Shown: piece after piece, positions 3,431 through 41,355 of the stretch
Layout of the letters: every line of letters starts with the position of its first letter
How positions within the stretch are numbered: position 1 is the stretch's first letter
The notes under the pieces: model-generated
What the model saw: only the letters and a program-made list of their open reading frames with translations
Databases searched by the model: none
What the model was told of the DNA's origin: nothing
From: an uncultured Pseudomonadota bacterium
Lineage (GTDB): Bacteria > Pseudomonadota > Alphaproteobacteria > Rs-D84
NCBI GenBank assembly: GCA_900320405.1
Contig: OOHM01000001.1
Coordinates: 203,191 to 267,190 of the forward strand
Direction: 5' to 3'
Length of the DNA stretch: 64,000 bases
Program-made: the position numbers and the translations under genes

Positions 3431-4981
3431 TTATATATCCATATCGTCGGGGATTTCGGTCAAATCAATAGGTGCCGCATCGTCGGATTGTGGCACAGGT
3501 GCGTTTTCTTCGGCAAATTGTATATGACCACGATTTGCCATTTCATTCAGGTTATCAAACAAACTGAATTCCGGCAAAAACGCCACCCGTATAGTATCGG
3601 TTTTCCCGTGACGGTTTTTCCCGATGATAATATCGGCCTTGCCTTTGGCTTTCTCCATACGATTTTGCCACGAATCAACAGATTTTTCATTTGGGGTGTT
3701 TGATATGCGATATGACGGGTCGCGATTTGCCAAATAGTATTCTTCGCGATATGTGAACATAACAATGTCGGCATCTTGTTCAATAGACCCCGATTCACGC
3801 AAATCCGACAATTGCGGGCGTTTATCATCACGCATTTCAACACTGCGTGATAATTGGGACAGGGCAATAACCGGAACATCGAATTCTTTGGCCAACATTT
3901 TAAGACCGCGCGTAATTTCCGACAATTCTTGAACACGATTGTCTTTGTTTTTACCGCCCGGTGAAGTCAATAATTGCAAATAGTCAATCACGATAAGTGC
4001 AATTCCGTTATATTTGCGGGCCAATCGGCGCACACGTGTGCGAATCATTGGAACCGACATACCCGGCGTATCATCTATGAACAATGGAATACGACCAATG
4101 GCATCTGCAAACTGGGTCATTTTAAGGAAATCTTCATCGGTCAACGACCCGGCCAGCATGGCATTAGAAGGTATTCGTGACTGTGAAGACAGCACGCGTG
4201 CCGCCAATTCAGATTGGTTCATTTCTAAACTGAAAAACGCGACCGCACCAGTGTATTGTGGATTTGCACGTCCCGAAAATATTGCGTTTGCCGCATTAAA
4301 TGCGATATTCATCGCCAATGTGGTCTTACCCATACCTGGACGTCCCGCGATAATAAGCAGATTCGATTTATGCAAACCACTAATGGCCTTGTCTAAATCG
4401 GTCAGACCCGTTGTTAATCCGGACAATTTGCCGTCCGCCTTGTACGCGATTTCGGCCTCAATCAGTGCGCTTTTCAATGCGGTTGCAATTGGTGCGACAT
4501 CGCGTCCAATATCGCCGGTTGTTGCCATATTGAATAACATTTGTTCGGCGTTTTCTATTTGTGATGCGACCGGTTTATCTAAATCTTCGACAAATGCGTC
4601 GTCGGTTATTGTCTGGCCAATTTGAATCAGTTCGCGTCGCATTGCGTTTTCGTGAACAATTCGACCATATTGTTCAACATTTACGACGGTTGCCCCCGCA
4701 CCCGCCAATTGTGTTAGATAATCTATTCCGCCAACAGATTCCAATGTTCCCTGTTGGTCCAGATAGTTTTTAACGGTGATTATATCAAACGGAATTCCGG
4801 CCGCGAATTGTCGCAACGCCAAACGATAAATTTCTTGGTGCGCGGGATGGGAAAAATCTTCGGCCCGCAAGAATTCAGAAATTTTTTCTAATGCACGATT
4901 GTTGGTCAGCACCGCGGCCAACACGGCTTGTTCGGCCTCTATATTCGTTGGTAAAGTTTTGGGAGTAAAGTCCATGTCCAA
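3431..4981 (-). CDS. dnaB: replicative DNA helicase DnaB
   Basis: 516 aa. N-terminal DnaB domain and RecA-like core with Walker A GRPGMGKTT. Acidic C-terminal tail as in alphaproteobacterial DnaB. Confidence 0.85.
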   Translation of the reverse strand: MDMDFTPKTLPTNIEAEQAVLAAVLTNNRALEKISEFLRAEDFSHPAHQEIYRLALRQFAAGIPFDIITVKNYLDQQGTLESVGGIDYLTQLAGAGATVVNVEQYGRIVHENAMRRELIQIGQTITDDAFVEDLDKPVASQIENAEQMLFNMATTGDIGRDVAPIATALKSALIEAEIAYKADGKLSGLTTGLTDLDKAISGLHKSNLLIIAGRPGMGKTTLAMNIAFNAANAIFSGRANPQYTGAVAFFSLEMNQSELAARVLSSQSRIPSNAMLAGSLTDEDFLKMTQFADAIGRIPLFIDDTPGMSVPMIRTRVRRLARKYNGIALIVIDYLQLLTSPGGKNKDNRVQELSEITRGLKMLAKEFDVPVIALSQLSRSVEMRDDKRPQLSDLRESGSIEQDADIVMFTYREEYYLANRDPSYRISNTPNEKSVDSWQNRMEKAKGKADIIIGKNRHGKTDTIRVAFLPEFSLFDNLNEMANRGHIQFAEENAPVPQSDDAAPIDLTEIPDDMDI

Positions 4982-37018: not shown

Positions 37019-37912
37019 ATGACAAAGACGTATTCTGGATTTATCGCAATTGTGGGACCCACAAATGCCGGCAAAAGCACCCTTATGAATCAAATTATGG
37101 GGCGCAAGGTATCAATTGTTTCGCACAAGGTTCAAACCACGCGAACAAACCTGCGTGCCGTGAAAATGGTCGGGGCGCGACAATTGATATTTGTGGATAC
37201 TCCGGGTATATTTCGCCCCAACCGTCGTTTGGACCGCGCAATGGTGGGTGCGGCGATGGATGCATTGTCGGATGCGGATGCGGTATTACTGATTATTGAT
37301 GCAACGCATGGCATTACCGATACGGTGCGGGGCATAATTGAACGGGTACGCGAACATAAAAACCTGTTTGTCGCATTGAACAAGACAGATTCTGTTAAAA
37401 AGCCGGATTTATTGCCAATTGCCGCAGAATTAAATACTTTGGCACCATTTCGTGAAATATTTATGATTTCCGCGCTGAAAAACGATGGTGTGGCGGAAAT
37501 GTTAAATGCGTTGGCGGCCGTTATGCCGGAATCTCCGTATTTATTTGATGCAACGGATAGTGTCGATGTGCCGGATAATCTGTATTTGGCGGAATTGACC
37601 CGGGAAAAGATTTATCGGTATATTCACCAAGAATTGCCTTACCACATAAATGTTGTGACGGAACGCGTTGATGTTGATGATGCGGGTGTCCTTGATATAT
37701 ACCAAAAAATAGTGGTGGCAAATGATGCCCACAAAAAGATTGTTGTCGGGCGTGGTGGTGCGCAATTGAAACAAATAGGTGTGGCCGCCCGTCACGATAT
37801 ACAGGACCAATGGGGGGTAAACGCACGGTTGCATTTGTTCGTGCGGGTCGAGGAAAATTGGGAAAATATGGCGGAGAATTATACCGACCAAGGTCTTGAA
37901 TTTAAAAAATAG
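37019..37912 (+). CDS. era: GTPase Era
   Basis: GPTNAGKSTL G1 motif, DTPG, NKTD, and a C-terminal KH domain. Confidence 0.85.
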   Translation: MTKTYSGFIAIVGPTNAGKSTLMNQIMGRKVSIVSHKVQTTRTNLRAVKMVGARQLIFVDTPGIFRPNRRLDRAMVGAAMDALSDADAVLLIIDATHGITDTVRGIIERVREHKNLFVALNKTDSVKKPDLLPIAAELNTLAPFREIFMISALKNDGVAEMLNALAAVMPESPYLFDATDSVDVPDNLYLAELTREKIYRYIHQELPYHINVVTERVDVDDAGVLDIYQKIVVANDAHKKIVVGRGGAQLKQIGVAARHDIQDQWGVNARLHLFVRVEENWENMAENYTDQGLEFKK

Positions 37913-37922
37913 AGGAATCAAA

Positions 37923-38318
37923 ATGAAAAAAAATGTAAAAAAATTAACTTTTTTGTCGCTTCTGGCGTTGGCCGGTTGTGCAAACAATAAAAATGTTGTG
38001 ACCGATGCAACAATGAATCGCGCGGTTTTGCGTGATATTAAAACCGGTCGTGAACGCGTGTACGATTGTTCATATAACGACGCAATGAAAAGTGTTTTGA
38101 TTTGGTTGGCGCCAGGTGACACGGTCCAATTGCAATCCAAAGATTGTGCGCGTGGCGTGTTCTTTACACCGGATAATTCGCAACTGATTTATGACGATGC
38201 CGAATTGGCGCGTAGAAAAGACGCGTTGGAACGTGAAAAAATCAGACAAATGGTCAAAATTGAATTTGAAAAACAAGAAGAAATGAAACGAAAAATGCGT
38301 GACGGTAACCACAGATAA
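37923..38318 (+). CDS. hypothetical lipoprotein
   Basis: MKKNVKKLTFLSLLALAGC lipobox. Basic, Glu-rich C-terminus. Confidence 0.5.
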   Translation: MKKNVKKLTFLSLLALAGCANNKNVVTDATMNRAVLRDIKTGRERVYDCSYNDAMKSVLIWLAPGDTVQLQSKDCARGVFFTPDNSQLIYDDAELARRKDALEREKIRQMVKIEFEKQEEMKRKMRDGNHR

Positions 38319-39847
38319 ATGCTGCATACATCAGATTTTGATTTTGAATTGCCACCGGAATTAATCGCGTCGCATCCATTGGAACGACGCGATGCTTCGC
38401 GTATGTTGGTTGTTGACCCAAATGGCATTTGCGAAGTTCCCCTCCTCGGAGGGGTGCCGGGTGAAACCCGGTGGGGTGGGGGTAAAAAAGATATTTGCTT
38501 AAATTTACCTAAAAACCCAAAATTAAAACAACGTGCACGCGAATTGCGCCAGGCCGGCAGTTTACCCGAAGCCTTGCTGTGGAATGAAATAAAAAATAAG
38601 AAGTTAAACGGTCTTGATTTTGATAGACAACATATCATAGGCAATTATATTGTAGATTTCTTCTGCCCGCAAATTGGGTTTGTTATTGAAATAGATGATA
38701 AAACCACACACGACCTTAAAGGTGCGTATGATGAAAAACGTGATAAATATCTTAAATCATTGAACCTTACTGTGATGCATATACCGGCTTCAGATGTGCT
38801 TAAAAATCCGGCATCCGTGGCACAATGGATTTATAATGTTGTTTTTGATACCCCCACCCCGGCGTGCATTGCACGCCACCCCTCCGATAATCACCCAAAA
38901 AATGCTATGCATTTTTCGGGACCCGATGGAGGGGAACTTGTTATTGCCGATAAATATATTCGTGATTTTTTGGACTACCTGAAACCTGGTGATGTGGTGG
39001 TGTTTAACAATTCACGTGTTATTCCCGCGCGCTTTGATGCGGATGGGCACGAAATAACATTACATACCGCGGTGGATGATAAGAATTGGTGGGGGCTGTG
39101 TAAAAAGTTTAACAAAATCAATATTGGCGACACATTGACAATGCGTGATGGCACAACAATTACGGTTGTTGATAAAGATGATGAAAGTGGACTACTGCTG
39201 CGTTTTAATTGCGACAATGTTTTTGATGTGTTGAATCGTGTTGGCAAAATGCCACTGCCACCATATATGAAGCGCGATGCCGAAGTGGCGGACCAAACGC
39301 GTTATCAAACGGTCTATGCCGACCCGTTGGGTTCTATGGCGGCACCAACCGCGGGTTTGCATTTCACCGACGAATTGATGGCGGAAATTGAAAATCGCGG
39401 TGCAAAAATAGTAAAAATTACATTGCATGTTGGCGCGGGAACATGGATGCCGGTTAAAACCGAAAATTTAAACGAACATAAAATGCACAGTGAATGGTGC
39501 TGTATCACACCCGCCCAGGCGGAAATAATAAACAACGCCACGCGTGTCATTGCCGTTGGAACAACATCACTGCGCACGCTGGAAAGTGCCGCCCGAAACG
39601 CCACCGGTGGGGCGCGTGTCGCACCGATTTGCCAAACCACAGATATATTTATCACACCGGGATATAAATTCCGTGTGGTTGATGTGTTGTTAACGAACTT
39701 TCATTTGCCAAAATCTACATTGTTTATGTTGGTGTCGGCATTTTCGGGCCTGGATGAAATGAAGGTCGCATATGCCCACGCCGTTGCGGAAAAATATCGT
39801 TTTTTCAGTTATGGCGATTGTTGTTTGTTATTTAGAAAGGAATCATA

Positions 39848-39848
<1 letters not shown>
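38319..39848 (+). CDS. queA: S-adenosylmethionine:tRNA ribosyltransferase-isomerase QueA carrying an in-frame ~146-aa insertion with a DUF559 endonuclease-like domain
   Basis: N-terminal FDFELPPELIASHP and a C-terminal region collinear with canonical QueA (VFNNSRVIPARF, HVGAGTW, VGTTSLRTLES, TNFHLPKSTL). 509 aa versus about 350 aa for typical QueA. Confidence 0.8.
38448..38886 (+). mobile_element. putative in-frame selfish insertion: DUF559 (Vsr-like endonuclease) cassette bounded by 38-nt GC-rich inverted repeats
   Basis: Left end cggaggggtg-ccgggtgaaacccgg-tggggtgggggta (38448..38485). Right end tacccccacccc-ggcgtgcattgcacgcc-acccctccg (38849..38886), which is the reverse complement apart from a swapped central palindrome. 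The DUF559 motifs ALLWNEI, FDRQH, YIVDFFCP, VIEIDD lie in between. Confidence 0.5.

Positions 39849-41355
<1,507 letters not shown>

Follow-up and report, generated by a model that had tools for sequence, protein, structure and literature searches.

A DUF559 nuclease cassette with double-hairpin ends lies in frame within an alphaproteobacterial queA gene and is probably a mobile element

In a stretch of 64,000 nucleotides from an uncultured alphaproteobacterium (contig OOHM01000001.1, positions 203,191 to 267,190; hereafter the window), the queA gene carries an insert without stop codons that codes for a DUF559 nuclease domain and is bounded by hairpin-forming inverted repeats. We consider it likely that this insert is a copy of a selfish mobile nuclease cassette that is translated as part of its host protein. 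More tentatively, and with rather more reserve, we propose that the DUF559 cassette is an unrecognised class of autonomous bacterial mobile element, whose nuclease would act on its own double-hairpin ends (perhaps in extruded form) and whose embedded copies, having no promoter, start or stop codon of their own, would live as a translated domain of the host protein. A preliminary description of the window had already read the insert as a small mobile element whose terminal inverted repeats enclose a nuclease cargo and which left the host frame intact, a view supported by the additional copies, the presence/absence polymorphism and the 99% identical cassettes reported below.

The open reading frame (ORF) in question (38319..39848, + strand) encodes 509 residues comprising QueA and a DUF559 domain, as first described and as borne out by the ORF list, Pfam and NCBIfam. 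Queuosine_synth (PF02547) matches with 386.5 bits (cut-off 25; 1.2e-115) in two stretches split by the insert, the QueA equivalogs TIGR00113 and NF001140 exceed their curated cut-offs (NF001140, 415.7 bits versus 324) and, even at E <= 0.1, Pfam reports no family in the protein other than Queuosine_synth and DUF559. Since the identical 509-residue protein occurs on 18 contigs from several samples, an assembly accident is excluded. Alignment of orthologues, a check proposed in the preliminary description, mapped the boundaries: relative to the closest insert-free orthologue (locus L084), the extra segment comprises residues 37-208 (38427-38942), so the protein is indeed longer than ordinary QueA, albeit by 172 codons and not by the ~150 residues first estimated.

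From repeat end to repeat end, the cassette measures 506 nt (38434-38939), more than the ~440 bp originally given, whose boundaries fell short by about 65 nt because they left out an outer 12-nt repeat. The flanking inverted repeats that had been noticed are confirmed (arms 38446-38489 and 38844-38887; 44 nt, 75% complementary overall, with identical outer segments and differing central palindromes), but outside them lies a further, perfect 12-nt inverted repeat (AAGTTCCCCTCC, 38434-38445; GGAGGGGAACTT, 38928-38939), which is why we let the element span 38434-38939. This outermost repeat had been missed because a nested hairpin module of ~40 nt fills the loop of the 3' outer hairpin, where canonical units have a loop of 3 nt. 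Each cassette end is a ~50-nt unit of the form AAGTTCCCCTCC-nn-GGAGGGG-TG-(hairpin)-GGGGTGGGGGTA, with the 3' end being its reverse complement. Other claims about the ends held up as well, in that both central palindromes are predicted to fold as hairpins and GC content is 0.58-0.63 at the ends versus about 0.35-0.45 nearby. In the whole window GGGGTGGGGGTA occurs only at 38473-38484 (+) and 38849-38860 (-), where 0.13 occurrences are expected, and besides the queA cassette we found no further repeat motifs, similar hairpins or DUF559 copies in these 64 kb. DUF559 is the only ORF inside the cassette.

Two features of the window's units may be mentioned here. The nested A/T-rich module is common to the window (38886-38927) and locus L083 (2555-2596), and a homologous module sits in an intergenic cassette (L031, 3871-3912) with compensated stems (CCCAAAAAATGC/GCATTTTTCGGG versus CCCACAAAATC/GATTTTGCGGG); it has the appearance of an optional third structural module or, alternatively, of an insertion nested in the hairpin loop. 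In the 5' unit (38448-38484), one strand is rich in G and, with at least four G-runs (GGGG, GGG, GGGG, GGGGG), might form a G-quadruplex.

Whole-protein searches returned over 90 clusters of QueA with DUF559, which come from Alphaproteobacteria of gut and rumen (Candidatus Enterousia and relatives), and insert-free QueA orthologues of 337-351 residues whose host part is 86-89% identical. In an alignment to a reference without insert, the inserts occupy two loops of the protein, namely site A (after position ~35), a variable turn of 5-6 residues (RMLVV/xxxxxx/DKHIRDF) that is occupied in the window, and site B (after position ~257), a variable loop of 8-14 residues (LESA/xxxxxxxx/RVAPIC) that is not; six proteins (620-718 residues) have both sites filled. 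At least four cassette sub-families, told apart by their repeat-coded peptides, are found per site. Some queA alleles hold just a solo unit (e.g. NSPLARGVVGETHRGVA) or tandem units, some embedded nuclease copies are internally deleted and the minimal footprint is the outer palindrome alone, 27 bp that read KFPSIGGEL (AAGTTCCCCTCCatcGGAGGGGAACTT). Each of the three reading frames is used by some repeat units, the spacers restoring that of the host, and in all 30 queA loci as well as the other embedded loci the nuclease lies in sense orientation, continuous with the host ORF. 

These findings bear on the idea that QueA of this lineage gained DUF559 long ago for a function of its own, which we regard as the least probable of the explanations weighed here. 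Purifying selection on the DUF559 part (see below) would agree with it; the close orthologues that lack any insert, the use of two alternative loops (sometimes both) by at least four sub-families at one site, the degenerate copies and footprints, and the presence of the cassette in unrelated proteins and between genes would not. An insert shared at the same position by orthologues of unrelated lineages without repeats had been named as the sign of such a fusion; instead, the queA insert is restricted to one queA clade and always accompanied by repeats. The preliminary description's own alternative, an intein-free fusion of an endonuclease domain, captures the likely protein product, not its origin. 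As a side observation, one metagenome-assembled genome (MAG; JAFXVB01) carries its site-B and site-A queA cassettes on separate contigs (L009, L016), one of which ends at the cassette, and cassette repeats probably break metagenome assemblies of the single-copy queA gene.

Site B gives evidence of movement. There, the cassettes of loci L014, L018, L019 and L021, from MAGs of different studies, differ by 3-5 positions in 453 nt (99% identity), whereas the queA flanks of L018 are 80-88% identical to those of the other three; identity drops ~15 nt beyond the cassette on its 3' side and ~75 nt ahead of it on its 5' side. Site A of the same four loci has two different sub-families or a solo unit, and the site-B cassette of L020 is 89-90% identical at the nucleotide level to the site-A cassettes of L014 and L021. 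A 99% identical cassette in queA genes of 80-88% identity is direct evidence of movement. Two hallmarks of the homing class are therefore found, i.e. presence or absence at the same site in homologous genes and an element that is closer between genomes (99%) than the host gene flanking it (80-88%).

Copies outside queA were found by a frame-blind tblastn scan with the insert profile (one genome per species; the window's own genome lay outside the best 80 loci). Among these best 80 loci, 68 are embedded in much longer ORFs and 12 stand alone; the queA loci of the scan are from gut and rumen MAGs of Candidatus Enterousia or uncultured Alphaproteobacteria, and through these relatives the window can be placed, as a probable member, in the same clade. 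Hosts with Pfam domains on both sides of an in-frame cassette include PriA, HsdR, HsdS, Type ISP and Type IIG proteins and N6/N4 methylases. HsdR has one conserved insertion site, ~25 residues before the Walker A motif, with carriers in Bacteroidota, Ignavibacteriota, Cloacimonadota, Calditrichota and others. A search of 1.84 billion cluster representatives added fumarase, Mur ligases and iPGM to the hosts; a TsaB-like protein is another, and all hosts have the same hairpin-coded peptides. With the cassette profile, 26,422 cluster representatives score at E <= 1e-3, of which 208 reach E <= 1e-30; among the best 150 matches, 61 of 142 newly fetched proteins have at least 250 residues. The cassette belongs to a widespread family that sits in loops of many bacterial proteins with the frame intact, and the search for further copies suggested in the preliminary description turned up a second queA site, other genes in related genomes and many hosts across phyla. 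Genes next to the elements are housekeeping genes, and we saw no DDE, serine, tyrosine or HUH transposase in the element or adjoining genes.

The stand-alone copies that we inspected (Enterousia-like genomes) are intergenic, between uvrB and tsaE; we had considered such copies as out-of-frame gene insertions but rejected this as the inspected ones are truly intergenic. In two intergenic copies (L034, ~3989-4030; L036, ~169-210) an ATG lies in the inner hairpin loop (…GGAGGGGTGTCGCAAATGCGACGGGG…, read MRRGGL…), a reading also seen in proteins P0134, P0137, P0140 and P0149, with the ATG ~10 nt after the GGAGG of the outer hairpin; for cassettes outside genes, the 5' unit could accordingly double as a candidate ribosome-binding site plus start codon. 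Among unusual architectures, the HsdR of a Chitinophagales MAG (L039, 2564-6970; ORF of 1469 residues) combines a DUF559 cassette with a GIY-YIG domain (residues 275-343) and has many tandem hairpin units at several places, and the GIY-YIG domain may be a second kind of in-frame nuclease cassette. Protein P0242 (377 residues) is made up of DUF559 domains, three in tandem (Pfam, 3 stretches, 6e-86).

About 50 elements other than the window's share the ends A(A/G)TTCCCCTCC-N3-GGAGGGG-TG-(hairpin)-GGGGTGGT, found again at the 3' end as an exact reverse complement, which yields an end-to-end consensus A(A/G)TTCCCCTCC...GGAGGGGAA(C/T)T. A unit is made of an invariant outer palindrome (TTCCCCTCC-N3-GGAGGGG), an inner hairpin conserved in structure with a near-invariant T and G flanking its stem, and an invariant GGGGTGG(T/G) run. 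We collected 208 distinct units and analysed covariation on 52 of equal length: in all 52 the outer helix is free of variation, while pairing in the inner helix (4 bp) stands at 99% and three of its four pairs covary (46 double-change cells versus 15.2 +/- 2.4 in shuffles, 0/500; controls with slid partners, at most 64% paired). Constraint thus acts on sequence in the outer palindrome and on structure in the inner hairpin. Nearly all pairs are Watson-Crick, and units are found in either orientation with respect to transcription, which fits a structure needed on both strands (i.e. in DNA) but may also suit one in RNA. Repeat and nuclease also vary together, with the repeat variant CTCT/AGAG being paired with the nuclease variant NFNRQ in six of seven cases as opposed to one of 62 for DFDRQ.

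It might be argued that the hairpin units are themselves the mobile entity, akin to repetitive extragenic palindromic (REP) sequences, miniature inverted-repeat transposable elements (MITEs) or Rickettsia palindromic elements (RPEs), moved by another enzyme or by replication slippage, with DUF559 as a passenger or beneficial domain. Solo units free of nuclease, tandem arrays, both orientations, units at neighbouring-gene sites and a nuclease-free footprint at the very same loops are what one would expect from it. Still, we find this unlikely, given that DUF559 keeps the same unit architecture and outer palindrome from phylum to phylum, that repeat variant covaries with nuclease variant, that the nuclease is under strong purifying selection with invariant residues kept in embedded copies, that the whole cassette is the unit of horizontal spread in L014, L018, L019 and L021 and that no other candidate transposase was seen beside the elements. 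A classical transposon with terminal inverted repeats, or a MITE, was rejected also: such repeats are there, but neither target-site duplication nor transposase was found.

Two unit variants deserve mention. About 3 kb downstream of queA, several Enterousia genomes (L008 ~7105, L014 ~6215, L017 ~7369, L019 ~6999, L020 ~7570) have a unit of the form TTCTCCTCC-tgt-GGAGGAG-TAC-(hairpin)-GGAGGTGGT, which also adjoins intergenic cassettes (L028-L036) and in which the outer hairpin has changed from C to T in one arm and, in compensation, from G to A in the other, the sole covariation seen in an outer helix that is otherwise invariant. Inside the hsdR ORF of a Roseobacteraceae MAG (L045, 4693-4980), truncated 33-nt units without the inner hairpin (AATTCCCCTCCTCAGGAGGGGCAAGGGGTGGT, at least five copies) form arrays.

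The domain between the repeats (residues 68-174) matches DUF559 (PF04480) with 90 bits (cut-off 20.6; 1.1e-25, Pfam), a Vsr-like PD-(D/E)xK fold whose closest entry in the PDB is 3HRL (3.6e-13). Residues invariant in the cassette family, namely D of VDFF, E-I-D-D-K and H, are kept in the window; acidic, Lys and His residues such as these characterise the fold. In an AlphaFold model, DUF559 has predicted local distance difference test (pLDDT) scores of 86-95, while the repeat-coded stretches (36-59, 181-202) are disordered, with scores below 50. The modelled domain superimposes on 3HRL with a template modelling (TM) score of 0.88 (root-mean-square deviation, 1.8 A) and on the homing endonuclease I-Bth0305I (3R3P) with 0.70, and the remainder of the model matches the QueA structures 1YY3, 1VKY and 1WDI. 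Selection was estimated by comparing the window with L083, which has the same insert, nested module included. The host part evolves under strong constraint (synonymous and nonsynonymous rates dS 0.66 and dN 0.049; their ratio, omega, 0.074) and so does DUF559 (omega ~0.08; dN 0.17; proportion of synonymous differences, pS, 0.70, near saturation), whereas repeat and linker codons show an omega of 0.53 but a pS of 0.20, as compared to 0.44 in the host. Low omega in host and DUF559 together with low pS in the repeats thus argue that both parts are kept as proteins and the repeats as nucleotide sequence, so that nuclease and interrupted QueA would both remain functional. Is the nuclease a known defence protein? 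This was rejected as the PADLOC anti-phage profiles gave only a marginal match (methyl-directed restriction endonuclease model, E 0.0026, 15 bits).

An intein or a self-splicing intron with a Vsr-like homing endonuclease, like the EDxHD family, would likewise lie in frame in a conserved gene, have a fold similar to I-Bth0305I and show a homing-like population pattern. We nevertheless see scarcely any prospect for it and rejected an intein outright, as Pfam returned no Hint or intein family even at E <= 0.1 and junctions are variable, without Cys/Ser/Thr, His-Asn and a following nucleophile (I/C...G/E here; S...E/R and K...L/A elsewhere). The ~50 residues that are not nuclease are of low complexity and predicted to be disordered, the sites used lie in variable loops and not in conserved motifs, no stop codon interrupts the element in the host frame and, between 37800 and 40300, Rfam has no match on either strand at E <= 1 (group I or II introns, other catalogued RNAs).

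Similarly, the inverted repeats of ~50 bp might allow recombination to flip the cassette and cause phase variation of queA and other hosts, and DUF559 proteins (odds ratio 14) as well as those annotated 'endonuclease domain-containing protein' are indeed enriched among predicted targets of programmed inversion (PMC9881135). To our minds this is very improbable, since the nuclease of every queA locus (30 of 30) and of the other embedded loci reads in the sense direction as part of one ORF with its host, the window's cassette has no open frame in antisense, no invertase gene lies nearby and inversion leaves presence/absence, two sites and spread across phyla unexplained.

How a cassette of this kind would operate can be pictured as follows. 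Being, repeats included, an open reading frame in a variable QueA loop, it would be read through by the ribosome to give QueA with a folded nuclease held on two disordered, Gly/Pro-rich linkers coded by the repeats, and read-through would provide for expression of the cassette while QueA stays functional. We regard read-through translation as most likely because almost every embedded copy keeps repeats, spacers and nuclease in register and free of stops. The nuclease may nick or cut DNA at or near hairpin units or the empty site, whereupon the cassette would be copied in through recombinational repair, in a manner of homing-like gene conversion, with repeat units serving as recognition sites and portable homology. 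A role for the nuclease in copying is suggested by its being the only gene in the element, by purifying selection and by CTCT/AGAG travelling with NFNRQ; the role assigned to the units is suggested by an outer palindrome that is invariant across phyla and by solo units at the same loops. Colonisation of new sites would be rare, the survivors being in-frame insertions in tolerant loops. This mechanism of mobility is one we infer from sequence data. Predicted read-through junction peptides are MLVVDPNGICEVPLLGGVPGETR and HFSGPDGGELVIADK.

Several points weigh against the reading of the insert as a translated, self-moving nuclease cassette. To our knowledge, no biochemical activity has been reported for any DUF559 protein, and the closest structure (3HRL) is uncharacterised. 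Read-through is deduced solely from selection and the conserved frame. For its QueA portion the model has moderate confidence (predicted TM score, 0.52), too little for a steric judgement on whether the fold accommodates the insert. The nuclease has diverged more than its host between window and L083 (pS, 0.70 versus 0.44), which suggests replacement by a diverged donor or, alternatively, a faster rate. In the flanks of the about 50 elements there is no direct repeat of 3 nt or more that could be a target-site duplication and no common target sequence was found, and solo units or rare illegitimate events would have to account for closely related nucleases reaching unrelated sites. The link between NFNRQ and CTCT may stem from a single inherited event, and every dataset used consists of metagenome assemblies.

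A last point on that side is the end-to-end panhandle that the repeats can form in RNA (minimum free energy, -176 kcal/mol; z, -7.6; none of 100 shuffles as stable), in which 38434-38456 and 38473-38484 pair with 38849-38860 and 38876-38939. It lends some weight to removal at the RNA level, whereby the panhandle would be cut by a double-strand RNase and the mRNA rejoined by an RNA ligase (e.g. RtcB), comparable to the 'SOS splicing' of DNA transposons through inverted-repeat pairing in animal mRNAs (PMC12779559). Conservation of the repeats at synonymous sites would fit as well. We hold this to be improbable: RNA removal exerts no pressure for a stop-free multiple of three, yet 68 of the 80 best loci are continuous with host ORFs on both sides, units serve in any of the three frames, the frame being restored by spacers, and Rfam has no matching family. 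Moreover, inner hairpins usually differ between the two ends of one element, which argues for selection on local hairpins rather than on end-to-end complementarity. Nor do we know of any such splicing system in bacteria.

Among known systems, the RPEs described by Ogata and colleagues in 2000 are reportedly tolerated in surface regions of proteins and open in the reading frame. By description only, the solo units found here (~27-50 nt, in frame in protein loops) are like them, and the preliminary description's comparison with RPEs holds as an analogy; RPEs have neither a gene nor a known enzyme, though, and it is the coding cargo bracketed by repeats, along with two hairpins per unit and spread across phyla, that sets the cassette apart. 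In REP/RAYT systems (RAYT, REP-associated tyrosine transposase) and at IS200/IS605 ends, short GC-rich hairpins with a sequence tag occur solo, arrayed or flanking a cognate nuclease gene. Solo, arrayed and nuclease-flanking hairpins, presumably recognised as structured DNA, are what the cassette units share with REP classes (PMC3733652). RAYTs, however, are HUH/Y1 enzymes and REPs are extragenic, whereas the cassette enzyme is PD-(D/E)xK and its repeats are mostly intragenic and translated. GC clusters or double-hairpin elements of fungal mitochondria are GC-rich hairpins in AT-rich genomes that occur in frame in genes and with endonuclease ORFs; they are organellar, have no DUF559, differ in sequence and associate more loosely with nucleases. 

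Vsr-like EDxHD homing endonucleases (I-Bth0305I; PMC2677866, PMC3239194) resemble the cassette enzyme as small Vsr/PD-(D/E)xK nucleases (TM score 0.70 to 3R3P), and their genes, too, are present or absent at a fixed site, closer than the host gene and subject to a cycle of invasion, decay and loss. Yet they reside in group I introns, in inteins or between split-intein halves and are spliced out, while the cassette is without splicing apparatus, bounded by hairpins, assigned to DUF559 by Pfam and located in variable loops rather than conserved motifs. The ShiLan domain (PMC11855218), which is not an intein or intron, spreads actively as an insertion within a DNA methylase of phages; like the cassette it is stop-free in the host frame and predicted to loop out, and the cassette, too, has DNA methylases among its hosts. 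ShiLan, however, hides an HNH nuclease that has a start and stop of its own in a different frame, has no terminal hairpin repeats described and belongs to actinobacteriophages, in contrast to a cassette nuclease that lies in the host frame of bacterial chromosomal genes across phyla. We found no published description of a DUF559 hairpin cassette in a literature search that was short on subscription journals; a mention of DUF559 in a preprint on 7-deazaguanine was a false lead as the text reads DUF5591. There is a substantial chance that the DUF559 cassette merits the status of a new class.

If our reading is true, introns and inteins would be joined by a third way for a homing-type nuclease to live inside genes, domain insertions would have a natural and recurrent source, and the large orphan family DUF559 would acquire a function, selfish mobility. 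It would explain odd peptides (NSPPLEGW..., NHPALxGTPPxEGN, VPLLRRG...) and architectures in HsdR, HsdS, methylase, Mur ligase, fumarase, PriA and QueA, and loops that tolerate nuclease insertions of ~150 residues would mark permissive sites for protein engineering. The pair of nuclease and hairpin is a candidate sequence- or structure-specific DNA tool, and near-identical cassettes in single-copy marker genes may lead to fragmentation and mis-annotation in metagenome assemblies.

Coordinates of the queA cassette and its host gene in the window
Feature	Positions	Strand	Basis
queA ORF with in-frame cassette inside	38319..39848	+	ORF list, Pfam, NCBIfam, 18 contigs
Host QueA N-terminal part, residues 1-36 (...RMLVVDPNG)	38319..38426	+	Alignment with insert-free orthologues
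7 nt (att tgc g) from host loop to element end; host loop residue or filler	38427..38433	+	Alignment versus repeat ends
Whole cassette, 506 nt	38434..38939	+	Outermost 12-nt inverted repeat; end consensus common to about 50 other elements
5' terminal repeat unit, encodes EVPLLGGVPGETRWGGG	38434..38484	+	Repeats, folds, family consensus and covariation
5' outer hairpin, CCCCTCC 38439-45 / GGAGGGG 38448-54	38439-38454	+	Repeat and fold analysis
5' inner hairpin, then GGGGTGGGGGTA	CCGGGT 38457-62 / ACCCGG 38466-71; 38473-84	+	Repeat and fold analysis
DUF559 nuclease domain, residues 68-174	38520..38840	+	Pfam 1.1e-25, structure, invariant residues, omega
3' terminal repeat unit, reverse complement of 5' unit	38849..38939	+	Repeats, folds
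3' unit, TACCCCCACCCC, then inner hairpin	38849-60; GGCGTGC 38861-67 / GCACGCC 38871-77	+	
3' outer hairpin, then AACTT	CCCCTCC 38879-85 / GGAGGGG 38928-34; 38935-39	+	
Nested A/T-rich hairpin module, CCCAAAAAATGC 38894-905 / GCATTTTTCGGG 38909-920	38886..38927	+	Repeats, fold
One extra codon (gtt) from element end to resumed host sequence	38940..38942	+	Alignment
Host QueA C-terminal part, IADKYIRDF... to stop codon	38943..39848	+	Pfam, alignment
Site B, second queA loop (LESA/ARNATGGA/RVAPIC), empty in window, occupied in other genomes	39591..39614	+	Alignments

Two small ORFs lie beside queA, one between queA and tgt (39848-40252, 134 residues) and one upstream (37896-38318, ~131-140 residues). 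Neither has a Pfam match, and their position is kept in L001, L083 and L084.

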